DNA of 64,000 bases from Octopus vulgaris (Eukaryota), in assembly GCA_951406725.2 (NCBI GenBank), contig OX597817.1:44764001-44828000 (forward strand), in the 5' to 3' direction. Numbering within the stretch: position 1 is the stretch's first letter; each line of letters begins with the position of its first letter. A program made the position numbers and the translations under genes. The notes beneath the pieces were generated by a model that saw only the letters and a list, made by a program, of their open reading frames with translations, was not told the origin of the DNA and made no database searches. Shown piece by piece: positions 5,314 through 63,600 of this stretch.

Positions 5314-6930
5314 TTAAATCCTTAAAAATGTTTTAGCCCGAAGGCCGCGGCCATGCTGGGGCACCACCGCTGAATGAGCTACACTAGTTTGTGAATCTAC
5401 CTCTGATACGTGGCACTTGATCAACAAGGGAGTTCGATGCTGCTGCCCGCATCCGTGTCTCCTGTCGTGAGGTAGGTTCATCTGGGACTCCCAACAAGAA
5501 GAGATCCAGTTTAGTTTTAAAGAAACCCACATCCACACCATGTAAGTCTCTCAGGCATTTAGGGAGGATGTTAAAGAGCTGTGGTCCTCTGAAACCCAAG
5601 CTGTTGCAGTATCTGGACCTGTATTTTGATGGTGATGTTGGAATCCTTGGCACCATGCAGCGGCGCCCCGTTCTGCGGTTGGAGTAACTTTGAATGCCAA
5701 AGTTTGGGACAAGACCCTCCAGGATTTTCCAGATGTATATCACTGCATATCTTCTTCCGCCTCCGCTCCAGGGAGAAGAGGTTTAATACCTTCAGTCTTT
5801 CCCAGTAGCTGACATTTTGCATTGAGACGATTTTCTTTGTGTAGCTTCTCTGAGTTGCTTCGAGTTCTGCTGTTTGTTTTATATTGTGTGGTGACCAAAG
5901 TTGGGAGCAGTAGTCCAAGCGGCTGAGGACAAATGTTTTCCATAGGACCATCAGTGTCTCCTTCTCTCTTGTTCTGAAAGTTCGGAGAATCCATCCAGCT
6001 AGCCGTCTGCATTTTATCACCAGATTAGCAATATGCATTTGGAAAGATGCATCATTGCTCATGTCAATGCCCAGGTCACGCACTGATTTTGACTCAGGGA
6101 TTGCAATTCTTCCTGGGCCAGTGTATCCAGTCTTCACGTCATTTACCTTTGTGTGCCAGTAGCGCAGGGCCTGGAACTTACCTGCATTAAACTGCATGTT
6201 GTTGTCCTCAGCCCACCTGTATATTGTGTCCAGCTCATGTTGCAGATGCGCAATATTTTCAGGGTTTTGTATTGCGTGGGAGACTTTTGTGTCATCTGCA
6301 TAGCTAGCAAGGGTGGTCATCGTAGCAACTGAAGGCATGTCTGAAAGGGCCACTATGAACATCAGTGGCCCCAAGACAGTGCCCTGTGGGACACCGCTTG
6401 TTATTTGCGTTTCCCTGGAGGTGGCTCCATTGCTCACAACTGCCTGTTTTCTGTCTTTTAGGAAGTTGTGCAGCCACTCTCCAAGTTTCCCGCCTATGCC
6501 GAGACCACGCAGTTTGTGACAGATCATACCATGGTCGACTTTATCAAAGGCTTTTGCAAAGTCAAGATATATTACATCCACATTTGAGCCATTTAGTAGC
6601 TGTTTCAACACCCAGTCATAGTGTTGCAGGAGCTGTGTTAGGCAGCCTCTACCTGGTCGAAATCCATGCTAGGTGTCAGACAGTAAGTCATTTTCTTCAA
6701 GGAACATGATTAGTTTCTTACGGACTATTCGTTCCATGACTTTGCTGATGTGTGAGGTCAGAGAGATAGGCCTATAATTTTTAGCATCTGCTCTGCTACC
6801 TCCCTTATGGATAGGGCATATTACCCCCTCTTTCAGTTTGACTGGGAGCTTACCACTTGCAAGAAAGCTCTGAAAAAGAAGCTGTAGCGGTTTTGCAAGG
6901 GCTCGTTTGCACGATTTGAGAAGGATCGCT
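5311..6930 (-). mobile_element. 5'-truncated CR1/L2-group LINE (RT domain), defective
   Basis: ORF 5571-6611 has DVIYLDFAKAFDKVDH, SGVPQGTVLGP, YADDTK and VRDLGI. Upstream YRPISLTSHISKVMERI. In-frame TAG near 6670, frameshift near 5745, 3' tail (TTTAAGGA)2; (TA)n on both flanks. Confidence 0.92.
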
Positions 6931-9066: not shown

Positions 9067-9107
9067 CTACAGACGCGTTTCAGGGTATTTGCCCTTTGTC
9101 AATGCAG
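9067..9107 (-). ncRNA. minimal type I hammerhead ribozyme, U3:A8 variant (left arm)
   Basis: CUGCA-UUGACAA-AGGG-CAAAUA-CCCU-GAAAC-GC-GUC-UGUAG. Confidence 0.75.
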
Positions 9108-9142
9108 AGTAGTCAGACCCAGTAGGTGTCGCTTCTGACTAC

Positions 9143-9185
9143 GCTGCATTGACAAAGGGCAAATACCCTGAAACGCGTCTGTAGC
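9143..9185 (+). ncRNA. minimal type I hammerhead ribozyme, U3:A8 variant (right arm)
   Basis: GCUGCA-UUGACAA-AGGG-CAAAUA-CCCU-GAAAC-GC-GUC-UGUAGC. Helix I 6 bp, helix II 4 bp, palindromic ACGCGU helix III, GUC triplet. Confidence 0.8.
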
Positions 9186-24542: not shown

Positions 24543-24578
24543 AATATAAGGGTAAAAAATATATATATATATATATAT
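24478..24578. repeat. (TA)n microsatellite at the 3' end of the Neptune element
   Basis: Direct reading. Confidence 0.9.
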
Positions 24579-24579
24579 A

Positions 24580-26820
24580 GTAGAAATATGTTACAAAAAG
24601 AAAATATAAAATACACGTGGAAATGTAAGGGGAAAATATGAAAAATCCACGAAAAAGCATATTGTAAATAAAAAAAGAAAAGGCTTTTTTTATGAAAGGT
24701 AACGACAGATATATACATTTAGATGGACTGAGGTAGTAATAAAAGTAAAAGTCATTATTATGAGATGATTAAAAAGTCAGAAAGAAAAGCATACCATGGT
24801 TTCTGCAAAGCTATTCATTGCTTTGAATAAACACCGGCTAATACACAGTGTCAGGTCTAATAGTTCCTGAGAAAAAAAAAACATTTGTAAGGGACGTAAG
24901 TGTTCTGGATTATTTGTAAGGGAGGTAAGTAGTTCTGGATTTAGTTATAGAGTTGTAATGTGAATGGCGTAGGGAGTGTATAGGGGTTAGTGGTTTTAAT
25001 TGATGGGTTAGTGGTGTTCTGTATTTAGTTGTGTGTTCATATTTAGTTGGGGGAGATATTTATTGATGGAAAATGCCTCTTAATTCAACCTTTGTTGCAT
25101 CGTGGTGTTCTGTGAACATTGATAGAAGGGGAAGATTTGGAAATTAAGATTAAGATTCCTGGCACGCATTTCTATGTGTTCACTAACCTGTAACTGTCTG
25201 TGGGTGGCGGATTTGCTCTTTGTGAATGGTGGTTTTTCGATGGAGTGCAATTTATGTTTGTCCAATATAGCGGTTACCACACCCTAAGCATGTCATGACA
25301 TAGAGTAGATTTTCAGAGGCGCAGGTGAAATTTGATTTGATCTTAAATATTTCTCCTTGTTTGAAGTGAAATTCTGAACCCTCCAAAAGGTGGGGGCATG
25401 TTCCACAGTTAGTACGCTCACATTTTTTCACTTTTGGCTCTGTTGTTAGTGGATACAGTCTTGCGCTGGTTAATATTTTTTTCAGTGACTTCGGTTGTTT
25501 TTTGCTTTTTATAATTTTGTATGAGCTTAAAATTTCGTTCATTTTGTCTGCTGTGAGGATGGGAAGATTTTGGGTGATAATGTTGAAGGCCTCGTTGTTT
25601 CTAGGGTTATGTGTGGAAATGTACGGGAGTATTTTTAATTCTGGTTTGCCTTAACATTTGTATATCTATTTCCTTAGCTCTTTTAATGCCTTCATTTATT
25701 AATGAGATTGGGTAATGTCTTTTAGTTAGTGTTGATCTAAGTTCAAGGAATCTTTGTTCACAAGTATATGTATCCGAAACTATGATACAGATTCTTTTCG
25801 CTAGATTAAAGGGTATATTAATTTTTCTGTGTTTGGGGTGGCAAGAGTTAAATAATAGGTATTGTTTAGAATCTGTGGGTTTATAAAAGATATCTGTTTT
25901 TATGTGGTTGTTAACTATTTTAATTAAGATGTCTAGTTGTTTACTGTTGTGTTCCATAGTGAATTGTATGTTGCTATGTATGTTGTTAAGCATTATTTTG
26001 AAATCAAGGAGTTTATCCATGCTGTCTTTCCAAAGTATGAAGTAATCATCCAAATATCTCTGCCAGTTCCCCTTTAAATAGCAATTAAAAGAGGCGCCAT
26101 ATTTTTCTAGTGATGATTGGTATAACCTGAGTTCTAGGTAACCTATTACAAGGTTTGCAATCACTGGAGCAGCTCTGGTTCCCATTGCAATTCCACATTT
26201 TTGTCGATAGTAAGTTGTATCGCACATGAAATAATTGTTCAGCAGGATGAATTTGAGTGCTTCAATTATAAAACTGTGGTTAATGCGTCCAGGGATCTCT
26301 TCTGGGTATTTTTCTAGCCAGATTGTGATTGATTCTATACCATAGTCGTGTGGGATATTGGTGTATAGATTCACCACATCGAAAGATACCAGCAGAGTTC
26401 CTTCCTTTACTGTCTTCGGGAGGTGGTTCAGCATGTCTAGGTCATCCCTGATAAAGCTTTTCACATATTTTAAAAACGTAAATATTTGAGTAATATGTCG
26501 AGGAAGTTGCTCAAACGGTGGGTTACACAAGAAGGGCCAGCTACGATGGGTCTCAGTTTGAGGTCAGTAGGGGGGGGGGGCATTAATGCATAGGCTTGTA
26601 GAGACTTTGCAGGCTTCACAAATGTGTGGATCTTTATGTATTTTGGGTAATTCGTAGAATAGACTAGGACTGTATTTAAAATTGGATAAATAGTCTATTT
26701 CATGTTTAGTGAGACCCCGCATTTTTGTTGCAAGATTCCCGATATTAAACTGTGTGTTGAAACAGATATTGTTGTATTTCGGGGTGGTATTCTTTTTAGC
26801 CAAAGAACCACAGGTACTAT
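24580..26820 (-). mobile_element. Penelope-like element, Neptune type (RT + Cys linker + C-terminal GIY-YIG endonuclease), frameshifted and 5'-truncated
   Basis: FYELPKIHK...LRPIVA, LVSFDVVNLYTNIP, YRQKCGIAMGTRAAP, WQRYLDD, TDIFYKPTDSKQYL; linker CERTNCGTC; NLLYVMTCLGCGNRYIGQT. Confidence 0.93.
24786..24824 (-). ncRNA. minimal type I hammerhead ribozyme, A3:U8 variant, in Neptune 3' terminus
   Basis: AAAGCA-AUGAAUA-GC-UUU-GC-A-GAAA-CC-AU-GG-UA-UGCUUU. Helix I 6 bp, palindromic ACCAUGGU, GUA triplet; helix II only 2 bp. Confidence 0.65.
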
Positions 26821-44009: not shown

Positions 44010-44145
44010 TTATACATACACACACACCTATATATACTGTATTTATTGATACATATATACATATTTTCATGTTGTATATAAATGCATATCTGTCTATCGT
44101 TATATATATATATAAGAAAGTTGGTTTGTGAAACCACGTGGTTGA

Positions 44146-45360
44146 ATATATAGAAAATCGTAAAAAGTGAAAAAAACTACAGAAGGCTTGTTTTAAAAGG
44201 TTAAAAAATATATATTTGAGTCAATATGTCTGAAGAATATTATAAATTTTTTTCTTACAATGACATAGTTTAGAAGAACCTTGCAAGAAGGATATGCACA
44301 ATAGTGTCAGAACAAAATACCAGGAACTTTAGACTGCAAGAACTCAAAAACACCCTAATTGACAGACATTACCCAGCTCAACTTATAGAGGATGGGATCA
44401 GACGTGCAACAGAAATCAACATAGAAACTTTAAGAAAAGTTCAACACAACAACACACCTTCCCCAAAAATACTACCTTACATATCTACATACAACCCCAG
44501 AAACAAAGAAGCCATCATCACCCAGAATTTACCAATACTTCATAAGGACCCCAAATTAAAGGAAATTCTATACATACACCAAATCATTAAAAGCTACAAA
44601 CAACCTAAATTCTCACAAAAGGAAAATTGTTTTCTGAAATTACGGATGCAAAAGTAAAAAAAATGTGGTAGATCGAACTGTGCAACATGTCCAAACCTGC
44701 TAGAAGGATCAGAATTCCTCTTCAAAGAGGGACAGAAATACAAGATCAAATCTAACTTTACTTGTGCCTCTGAAAACATAATTTAAGTCATAAAATGCTC
44801 GGGCTGCCACCAAGACTACGTGGGATCAACGGGACTATCACTCAGACGTAGATGCACACTGCATCGACAACAGATTACCTTTTAGTGAGCACATTGAGAA
44901 ATGCGTAAAGCAACTACTACCACAATTTTTAATCTTTCCATTTTACCAATGTGCGATCGGATCATCAACACAAATTAGACTAAACAAGGAAACATTCTTC
45001 ATTGAAAAGTACAAGCCCAGACTTAACCATTCCAACATACTGATACAGAGAAATTCACACCAAGGGAAAGGCAAAAAATTTTAAGCGATTATCTCCCTTA
45101 CACCGGAAGAAATTACTCATTACCTCCCCTTATTCAGAACTCTTTTCAACATAAACATAACGATAACTCTGCTCAACATAAACATAACGACGTAAGAAAT
45201 TTGAAAAGCTAAACGCGAAACCGGTCTTTCTTCTAAACTATGTCATTGTAAGAAAAAAAATTTATAATATTCTTCAGACATATTGACTCAAATATATATT
45301 TTTTAACCTTTTAAAACAAGCCTTCTGTAGTTTTTTCACTTTTTACTATTTTCTATATAT
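44146..45360 (+). mobile_element. 5'-truncated Neptune-type Penelope element with inverted terminal repeat
   Basis: NLARRICTIVSE...RHYP...LPYISTYNP; CGRSNCATCPNL; SNFTCASENII*VIKCSGCHQDYVGST. 44146-44278 is the reverse complement of 45228-45360; (TA)n nearby on both sides. Confidence 0.92.
45194..45232 (+). ncRNA. minimal hammerhead motif, U3:A8 variant, in Neptune 3' terminus
   Basis: AAGAAA(U)-UUGAAAA-GC-UAAAC-GC-GAAAC-CG-GUC-UUUCUU; palindromic ACCGGU; one unpaired U at the base of helix I. Confidence 0.6.
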
Positions 45361-45382
45361 ATATCTATATATATATATATAT

Positions 45383-45635
45383 ATCACGTGACCAACCAAG
45401 CCATCAGATGTTGCAACACATCACTGGTCACAATGCGCTACACATTGTTTTAGCCTTCAAAGACGCCACTCCACTGGCTAAGAAGAAAGAGTGAGAGAAA
45501 ATTGTGGCGAAAGAGTACACCAGGGACCACTACCAACTGCTGGAGCTTTAGGTGTTTTCGCTCAATAAACACTCTCATCGGCCGGTCTGGGAATCGTGAG
45601 TCCGCTGCCCTAACCACTGGGCCATTGCGCCTCCA
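45383..45635 (-). mobile_element. SINE family C tail type 1, internally deleted
   Basis: Matches 11719-12037 with deletions. Confidence 0.8.
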
Positions 45636-48492: not shown

Positions 48493-48497
<5 letters not shown>

Positions 48498-48829
48498 TGC
48501 AGCGTGGAAGGTGTTTATAAGCCATTTAAGAAACACACAAAAGCCGTTCGATTCACTTCAACATTTGAGTTTAATTTGTCAAAATACTTTCGTCGCTAAA
48601 ATCCGCGACCTGTTCACTGTCAAAAATCCGTGCTGCACGAATTTTTGTCAGTGAACAGGTCGCGGATATTAGCGACGAAAATATTTTGACAAATTAAACT
48701 CAAATGTTGAAGTGAATCGAACGGCTTTTGTGTGTTTCTTAAATGGCTTATAAACACCTTCCACGCAGCAATTGTTTTCGTTTCAGCACACGATCTCAGA
48801 TCAAATTACTTGCTATCCGAGTACATCTC

Positions 48830-48830
<1 letters not shown>
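48493..48830. mobile_element. palindromic (head-to-head) pair of the ~200-bp hammerhead element inserted in (TA)n
   Basis: Arms 48493-48633 and 48635-48775 with a 1-nt centre; the right arm continues to 48830; (TA)n on both sides. Confidence 0.88.
48644..48693 (+). ncRNA. minimal type I hammerhead ribozyme, G3:C8 variant
   Basis: UUUGUCA-GUGAACA-G-GUCGC-GGAUAUUA-GCGAC-GAAA-A-UA-UUU-UGACAAA; the mirror copy on the minus strand (48575-48624) has a helix I mismatch. Confidence 0.72.
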
Positions 48831-62834: not shown

Positions 62835-63600
62835 GGAAATTATTTACATTTTTTACATTTGACGGATATTTGTCCCCATCTTGTTTGTTGTTAACACAAC
62901 GTTTTTTTTTTTACATTTGACGGATATTTGTCCCCATCTTGTTTGTTGTTAACACAACGTTTCGGCTGATATACCCTCCAGCCTTCATCAGGTGTCTTGG
63001 GGAAATTTCGAACCTGAGTTCTCATTCCTAAGGTATTTTACGATGTTATTATTACTATTGTTGTTGTTGTTGGTTTTGTTGTTACTGTTGTTGTTGTTGT
63101 TGCTGTTGTTAGTAACCCGCGCTCTTAACCACTACACCATATACCTGTGGGCAATTACGGAATGAATTTTAGGGTTTATAACTCTAATATTTTCCTATCC
63201 TTCCTTAATACCAGTTCCCATATGCTACTCATATATGCACTCGGTCTGCTTAGGAGGCTATTATGTCCTAACATATACGTTGCTTCATTTAGTTATCGTA
63301 TTTTCCTGTGGTGTTCTCTATCTATTATTTTAACTTTATCCCACAGGGGAAGGTGGTCTCCATTTTTCCATACATGATTAGCTATACCCGATTTATCAAT
63401 GTCTCCTCGGATCACAGCTTTGCGATGTTCGTCTACCCTTATTTGGGTGGGGGGACATATTTCACCTTTGTATAACCTACCACAACTGCATGGGACGGAT
63501 TACACAAAGTTTTTGGTCGTATTCTCTTCTACTCTCGAAAGAGATATTTGCGAAGTGTTGTATTATTTTTGAATACTGTCCTGATGTCATATGGGCCGCA
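62835..63600 (-). mobile_element. Penelope/Poseidon-type PLE 3' portion (GIY-YIG endonuclease plus terminal repeat)
   Basis: Manual translation TKNFV*SVPCSCGRLYKGE...IRVDEHRKAV...SGIANHVW..GDHLPLWDKVKIIDREHHRKIR*LNEA. An opposite-strand fragment KNMTQNCVYSIP lies at ~63635-63680. Confidence 0.85.
62951..62996 (-). ncRNA. minimal type I hammerhead ribozyme, C3:G8, loop-less helix III
   Basis: GACAC-CUGAUGA-A-GGCUG-GAGGGUAUAU-CAGCC-GAAAC-GUU-GUGUU; palindromic AACGUU. Confidence 0.8.

Follow-up and report, generated by a model that had tools for sequence, protein, structure and literature searches.

Inverted repeats of variable length, tails and microhomology joins are already known for Penelope-like elements (PLEs) (PMC8557442, PMC3846280, PMC2377424; here and below, published work is represented by the passages of the cited papers that bear on the subject). 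The Neptune/Nematis group of endonuclease-bearing (EN+) PLEs is defined by a CX2-5CxxC linker and (TA)n targeting (PMC8557442). The hammerhead ribozymes in PLE pLTRs are described as having low activity, with evidence in vivo absent (PMC4209133), and the relevant passages of PMC8557442 call their function unclear. Hammerhead mutants left insertion unchanged in vitro, where the ribozyme was found dispensable (PMC11167929). In the same in vitro work the Anolis Poseidon protein cut and extended both target strands, and RT began at two sites, one on either side of the tail (PMC11167929). With regard to palindromic junctions, Arkhipova et al. 2013, in the passages concerned, favour self-priming on antisense template. 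Our literature search (main texts, most subscription papers lying outside its coverage) found no map of PLE breakpoints against the hammerhead cut, and the available part of a 2026 retrozyme preprint does not mention cleavage sites.

The octopus element studied here shares with the Neptune/Nematis EN+ PLEs (PMC8557442, PMC3846280) the order of RT, CX4CxxC linker and C-terminal GIY-YIG, the TA-repeat targets, the variable head-to-head arms, the 30-40-bp tail at one end and the microhomology joins; we found no structural difference, and in the passages on these elements the arm ends are not base-mapped against the ribozyme. With the minimal pLTR hammerheads (PMC4209133) it shares the U3-A8 core, a version of the C3-G8 core known from Schistosoma PLEs, as well as the tiny palindromic helix III, the dimer type and the pLTR location, but its stem II has just 2 bp, the base at N1.1 with which stem I would close is absent from about 70% of the family copies, and the octopus motif is a prediction. 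As in Anolis Poseidon PAc (PMC11167929), two arm ends bracket the tail, the targets are AT-rich and the ribozyme lies upstream of the tail. In PAc, however, ribozyme and ORF start overlap and the ORF contains the tail, whereas both lie upstream of the ATG in the octopus family; moreover, the passages on PAc report no RNA ends at the cut, whereas the octopus family has a small genomic excess there. The HDV-like ribozyme of R2 (PMC3774820) offers the same logic, in which a cut site is read from genomic 5' junctions, but the R2 cut defines full-length 5' ends, whereas it accounts for a few percent of octopus arms at most, and two near-full-length octopus copies do not start at the cut.

The octopus element and its inverted arms

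The window is a 64,000-nt stretch of Octopus vulgaris DNA (GCA_951406725.2, contig OX597817.1, 44,764,001-44,828,000, forward), and all coordinates are positions in it. The element has the following parts.

44114-44146, minus strand: PLE tail, about 33 nt, on the inverted arm only (436 exact matches family-wide)
44146-44278, minus strand: short inverted arm, a copy of 45228-45360, inner end blurred by AA microhomology
44279-45135, plus strand: PLE ORF, 5'-truncated and decayed, with the end of the RT thumb, the CX4CxxC linker and a putative GIY-YIG-type endonuclease
45138-45190, plus strand: 27-nt-spaced sub-repeats opening the pLTR
45227-45352, plus strand: 3' part of the pLTR, the tail-less end of the long arm
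45353-45385, plus strand: TA microsatellite target on the right of the element, with a second TA run at 44100-44113

The first-pass annotation had paired 44146-44278 with 45228-45360 as an inverted repeat, and blastn of the element against the window bore this out (44278-44146 versus 45228-45360, 97.8% identity over 134 columns with 2 gaps, E 2e-59). In other family copies the ORF just upstream of 44279 reads ...CCCTTCAA/CCTTGC and thus ends in TTCAA before 44279, which creates an AA microhomology at the short-arm junction. Because of this microhomology the start of the short arm is placed at 45228-45230, so the duplicated segment does begin 1-3 nt from the predicted cut, as had been claimed, and 45227, the first base past the cut, is never included. 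The tail on the inverted arm was absent from that annotation. In near-full-length copies (L254 and L265) the tail continues into the 5' UTR about 25 nt ahead of the ORF ATG; the upstream pLTR begins at 45281 in L254 and at 45177 in L265, in neither case at the predicted cut. The family is large: the 2.8-Gb genome contains at least 655 arms carrying the 45231 anchor, together with 436 exact copies of the tail.

The ORF of the window copy, interrupted by frameshifts and stops, carries the linker CGRSNCATC and an endonuclease with CxxC and two His. A longer family copy (L262) matched RVT_1 at E 5e-8, and the DKG motif, IIYVIKCSGCHQDYVG and two His were read from translations of family copies; these translations gave no Pfam GIY-YIG match at E 0.01, so the endonuclease is assigned from motifs alone. 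The element thus combines a PLE-type RT followed by a C-terminal GIY-YIG with CCHH (the endonuclease by motif), a pLTR repeating the 5' region of the element, the optional 30-40-bp tail and an inverted truncated arm, as EN+ PLEs do, and it has the CX2-5CxxC linker between RT and EN and the TA flanks of (TA)n targeting that mark the Neptune/Nematis group. As to the name Neptune given at first pass, the C-terminal GIY-YIG and the CX4CxxC linker agree with either a Neptune or a Nematis PLE. We rejected membership in Naiad/Chlamys, since the EN is C-terminal rather than N-terminal and a hammerhead is present, and we rejected a non-LTR retrozyme, which consists of non-coding tandem hammerhead units, since this is a coding PLE family with a single hammerhead in the window copy. 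The window element is an ordinary 5'-truncated, decayed insertion of an endonuclease-bearing PLE within a TA microsatellite.

The predicted hammerhead and breaks at its cut site

The hammerhead motif that had been noticed at 45194-45232, with a predicted cut after C45226, stands at the level of sequence. Its parts are as follows.

45194-45232, plus strand: predicted type-I minimal hammerhead with U3-A8 core, predicted cut between 45226 and 45227
45194-45199, plus strand: 5' strand of stem I, AAGAAA
45201-45207, plus strand: core, UUGAAAA
45208-45216, plus strand: stem II, 2 bp
45217-45226, plus strand: GAAAC-CG-GUC, with C17 at 45226
45227-45232, plus strand: 3' strand of stem I

The motif has the Watson-Crick 3-8 pair, GAAA, NUH and stems I-III of a minimal type-I hammerhead, its helix III is the palindromic ACCGGU of the dimer type, and the U3-A8 core is almost invariant across about 43 arms of the family. 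Stem I has 6 bp, or 7 bp in the A-variant, in which an extra A at N1.1, after the GUC, completes it (14 of 46 arms); the lineage of the window copy lacks this A and has U facing U where stem I begins at its base. The hammerhead was not reported by an Rfam gathering scan of the window, and MFE folds alone do not yield its catalytic fold; self-cleavage after C17 is predicted. Two long copies, L108 and L115 (matches at locus 1501-1528), are missing exactly GTC just 5' of the predicted cut, which could have arisen by chance, or else through re-ligation or an imprecise jump across the cut. A pLTR intron like that of D. virilis Penelope is suggested by GTAAG donor-like words at 45192, where stem I starts, and 45248, together with a pyrimidine-rich TAG at 45330. 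The contigs of four runs presumed to be RNA contain neither a splice joint nor a pile-up of ends, features that contigs are unable to reveal.

To select arms that break inside a short interval, we used genome-wide patterns that forbid two conserved upstream bases, and the printed matches were scored by eye. The interval at the site (45224-45231) gave 34 matches, of which 7 were dropped as longer arms with small deletions. The 27 scored starts fell at 45227 (17), 45226 (2), 45228 (4, the window copy included), 45230 (1) and 45231 (3), with zero at 45224, 45225 and 45229. The 17 starts at 45227 represent 16 independent loci, two of them sharing one locus, and amount to about 3.8% of 655 arms at an assumed pass rate of 0.69. 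They belong to multiple sub-lineages and occur in solo, tailed, tail-less and inverted contexts; about 10 are inverted or complex and 7 are solo, the solo ones mostly in TA runs (all rows but one). Three control intervals gave 58 matches with 13 dropped (12 starts at 45227, 10 at 45238 and 0-4 in other bins), 52 with 9 dropped (10 at 45197, 7 at 45200 and 0-5 in other bins) and 41 with 6 dropped (8 at 45280 and 6 at 45283). Position 45227 tops 40 single-base bins with 17 starts, followed by 10, 10 and 8. The 39 non-site bins have a mean of 2.9 and a variance of 6.7, and the negative-binomial tail for 16-17 starts is about 0.001. At the sequence-matched C/TTTT site 45309, 6 matches with 2 dropped left 4 breaks among 1208 arms (0.4%, a denominator that takes in older sub-lineages), a rate 9-fold below that of 45227, with a local background also 2-3-fold lower.

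As a null we used simulations in which microhomology blurs and favours junctions, with an assumed mix of partners. They gave 4.7-5.0 expected starts at 45227 for a background of 0.4% per nt (P for at least 16, 3e-5 to 8e-5), 7.0-7.6 for 0.6% (P 0.002-0.005) and 10.5-11.3 for 0.9% (P 0.07-0.11); a separate run scaled on the 45197/45200 control interval gave 8-11 (P 0.006-0.04). The observed/expected ratio at 45227 is about 2, against 1.9-3.7 at the non-site bins 45238, 45283, 45200 and 45197, and as a ratio 45227 is not an outlier. The 45228 bin, which holds the window copy, is not enriched (4 starts versus 1.2-4.4 expected). The excess at 45227 is thus a modest, unreplicated feature of the family, about 2-fold over the null and concerning about 4% of arms, and the nearness of the window copy to the cut is weakly above chance.

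For an unbiased view we took the first 100 of 436 tail matches listed and 51 contig-1 regions from 1208 3'-anchor matches. This sample yielded 150 loci, 135 with a scorable arm, and 193 arms once duplicates were removed; de-duplication also merged identical long arms and the twin arms of perfect palindromes (e.g. L302). Start rates per nt rose from 0.21% at 45306-45335 through 0.29% and 0.55% to 0.63% at 45231-45245 and 0.80% at 45225-45230 (6 of 125 at risk), were 0.25% at 45205-45224, reached their peak at the upstream edge of the ribozyme (45174-45204; 0.88%, 31 of 113 at risk) and were 0.2-0.5% upstream of 45174. Certain piles of arm starts, e.g. at 45254, could result from BLAST breaks where sub-lineages have diverged. 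The peak zone may correspond to the 5' ends of RNAs that the pLTR promoter produces. The inner ends of inverted arms are scattered across more than 1 kb, and 53 of 57 inverted loci carry the tail on one of their arms only. The arms meet directly or overlap in 36 of 56 head-to-head pairs (mean overlap 4.2 nt, with at least 2 nt of microhomology in 26, or 72%), and the other 20 have filler; 11 of the 56 are symmetric to within 3 nt, at varied positions, and only 2 have an arm at 45225-45230. Since the starts are scattered and so few pairs have an arm at the site, the ribozyme does not set the inverted termini.

Other hammerhead-bearing families in the window

Hammerhead-like cores occur in four PLE-type families of the window, at 45201 (plus), 62991 (minus), 48652 (plus) and 24818 (minus). 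Their positions 3-8 span every Watson-Crick pair (U3-A8, C3-G8, G3-C8 and A3-U8, respectively), the pair is conserved inside each family where checked, and Rfam reported none of the four cores. The three families other than the one studied here showed no clear single-base peak at the site, each test being weak. In the old and noisy C3-G8/GUU family, 2 site starts were found among the first 100 of 1606 matches listed, which are mostly mutated full-length copies and deletions. The A3-U8 family gave 7 matches with only 6 breaks, none exactly at the site. The G3-C8/UUU family, scored by eye on the first 100 of 382 matches listed and bearing a UUU triplet, had about 7 starts at the site, 8 at the base preceding it and 7 at the second base past it.

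Several of these elements deserve description in their own right. The element at 48493-48830 is a short non-coding PLE-type element present in hundreds of copies, with two 141-nt head-to-head arms, TA flanks, a 55-nt tail on one arm, the G3-C8 core, a 7-bp stem I and the UUU triplet. A second PLE copy of Neptune/Nematis type, with RT and the A3-U8 hammerhead, lies at 24560-26700 (minus) and is about 68% identical in the linker-endonuclease part. A fragment at 62850-63600 (minus) has a GIY-YIG-like frame (by eye) and the C3-G8 hammerhead; its 3' piece is tandemly duplicated, and the second copy begins about 7 nt before the predicted cut. Elsewhere in the window, an Rfam MIR399 match barely over threshold (9071-9180; 58.7 versus 57 bits) forms a long hairpin, which probably is an inverted repeat that stems from a repeat element rather than a plant microRNA, and a 365-aa frame at 5571-6668 (minus) resembles a non-LTR retrotransposon reverse transcriptase.

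Origin of the inverted arms and of the excess at 45227

We consider it probable that the window insertion consists of two cDNAs, primed on the two cut strands of the target and joined by the 2-nt microhomology, and that its proximity to the ribozyme cut is due rather to chance. The TA target would be cut on both strands and priming would take place on each at opposite ends of the tail, one cDNA beginning at its far end and the other at its near end; each would halt early where annealing to the partner or the flank is possible, and the two incomplete cDNAs would be joined via microhomology. The anatomy that we see includes the one-arm tail, the TA flanks, the head-to-head arms and microhomology at most junctions. 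Fold-back of a single cDNA was rejected for the window copy, because the tail is on the short arm and the ORF on the long arm, which simple fold-back cannot make. In addition to the two-cDNA route, a few percent of the family's cDNAs may run off an RNA 5' end made by the hammerhead and leave the small excess at 45227, a step that we hold tentatively.

That the excess at 45227 reflects a microhomology or target-like hot spot, and not an RNA end, has in our view close to an even chance. T-runs would pair with the AAATTT of partners or with tail ends, and ATTT would merge into TA repeats. Microhomology of at least 3 nt with T-runs is found in L094, L099, L103 and L104, the four non-site bins have ratios comparable to that of 45227, and both the P of 0.07-0.11 at the 0.9% background and the lack of a clear peak in the three other families agree with a hot spot. 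Against it, the matched C/TTTT site has its 9-fold lower rate (tempered by the lower local background), and the negative-binomial tail remains small for 16-17 starts, while the null already weights microhomology. Since 45227 exceeds the null (16-17 versus about 7) and 45309 is low, chance plus microhomology is not the whole family story.

It is possible, though we would not put it at even, that the excess is a genomic record of hammerhead cutting by a Neptune-type PLE in the germ line, the 5'-OH product being reverse-transcribed and inserted by a minor, dead-end route. If the excess is real, its likely source is a tandem transcript cut only at the upstream ribozyme. Trimming of a run-off product could also leave an arm that misses the site by 1 nt. 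The breakpoint map around the GUC, which the first-pass annotation had proposed, gives this idea partial backing: it is not uniform and 45227 is the largest bin, but the ratios elsewhere are similar, the other families show no clear peak, arms starting at the site are as often solo as inverted, and the window copy itself stops short.

The same annotation suggested that the window arm itself may be a cDNA of the 3' self-cleavage product. Such run-off, with 1-3 nt trimmed at joining, is doubtful. A tandem transcript cut at the upstream and not the downstream ribozyme would supply both arms, with priming at the first tail giving a cDNA of about 160 nt that ends at the cut and priming at the second tail giving the long arm through the intact ribozyme. 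The family-wide excess in several sub-lineages speaks for it, and so do L093 and L120, which pair a site-starting arm with a longer piece, and the agreement of R2 ribozyme cut sites with genomic 5' junctions (PMC3774820). Moreover, in near-full-length copies the cut precedes both the tail and the ORF, and the 3' cleavage product therefore contains the priming sites. On the other hand, the arm lacks 45227, its lineage has the U-U opposition in stem I, minimal PLE hammerheads are poor cleavers in vitro (PMC4209133), and Anolis RNA-seq, as far as described in PMC11167929, has no reads ending at the site. Cleavage has a low probability for the window copy, since its arm misses the site by 1-3 nt and the 45228 bin shows no enrichment.

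Another reading takes the excess as a capped transcription start that happens to coincide with the cut. We regard this as distinctly unlikely. The A-variant has TCATTT at the cut, presumably an initiator-like word, and by eye about 8 of 21 site-starting arms have a G immediately before their first base, a pattern that copying of a cap could produce. In the control intervals, however, some 17-21% of starts also follow a G; the difference is small, and the extra-G signature was dropped as too weak. In D. virilis, an intron ending at helix I of the ribozyme follows 46 bp after the start site (PMC2377424, PMC4209133), and a start so placed fits the upstream hot zone better than 45227.

The broadest claim, that hammerhead cleavage creates PLE inverted termini generally and so explains them mechanistically, is highly improbable: L302 has both arms at 45227, and in L102 and L117 one arm lies at N1.1 with its partner 1-2 nt away at most, but 54 of 56 pairs lack an arm at 45225-45230, the symmetric pairs lie at various positions, ends are spread over more than 1 kb with microhomology at most abutting junctions, and Naiads form inverted structures without canonical hammerheads (PMC8557442). 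We also rejected arms both at the cut as strong evidence, since one arm keeps C17 in L102 and L117, the arms of L112/L113 have a single upstream junction in common and so count as one, and symmetric pairs are common elsewhere.

The window element is a further example of a known PLE type, in which the inverted-repeat geometry is borne out and the broad ribozyme reading is refuted. These results argue that any real cleavage would be a side route rather than what produces the inverted termini. A clean breakpoint peak would make hammerhead cutting by PLEs in vivo testable from genomes alone. If the excess at 45227 is truly a record of cutting in the germ line, it would provide the in vivo evidence that the cited papers describe as lacking, and PLE ribozymes could then be ranked for activity from maps of breakpoints.
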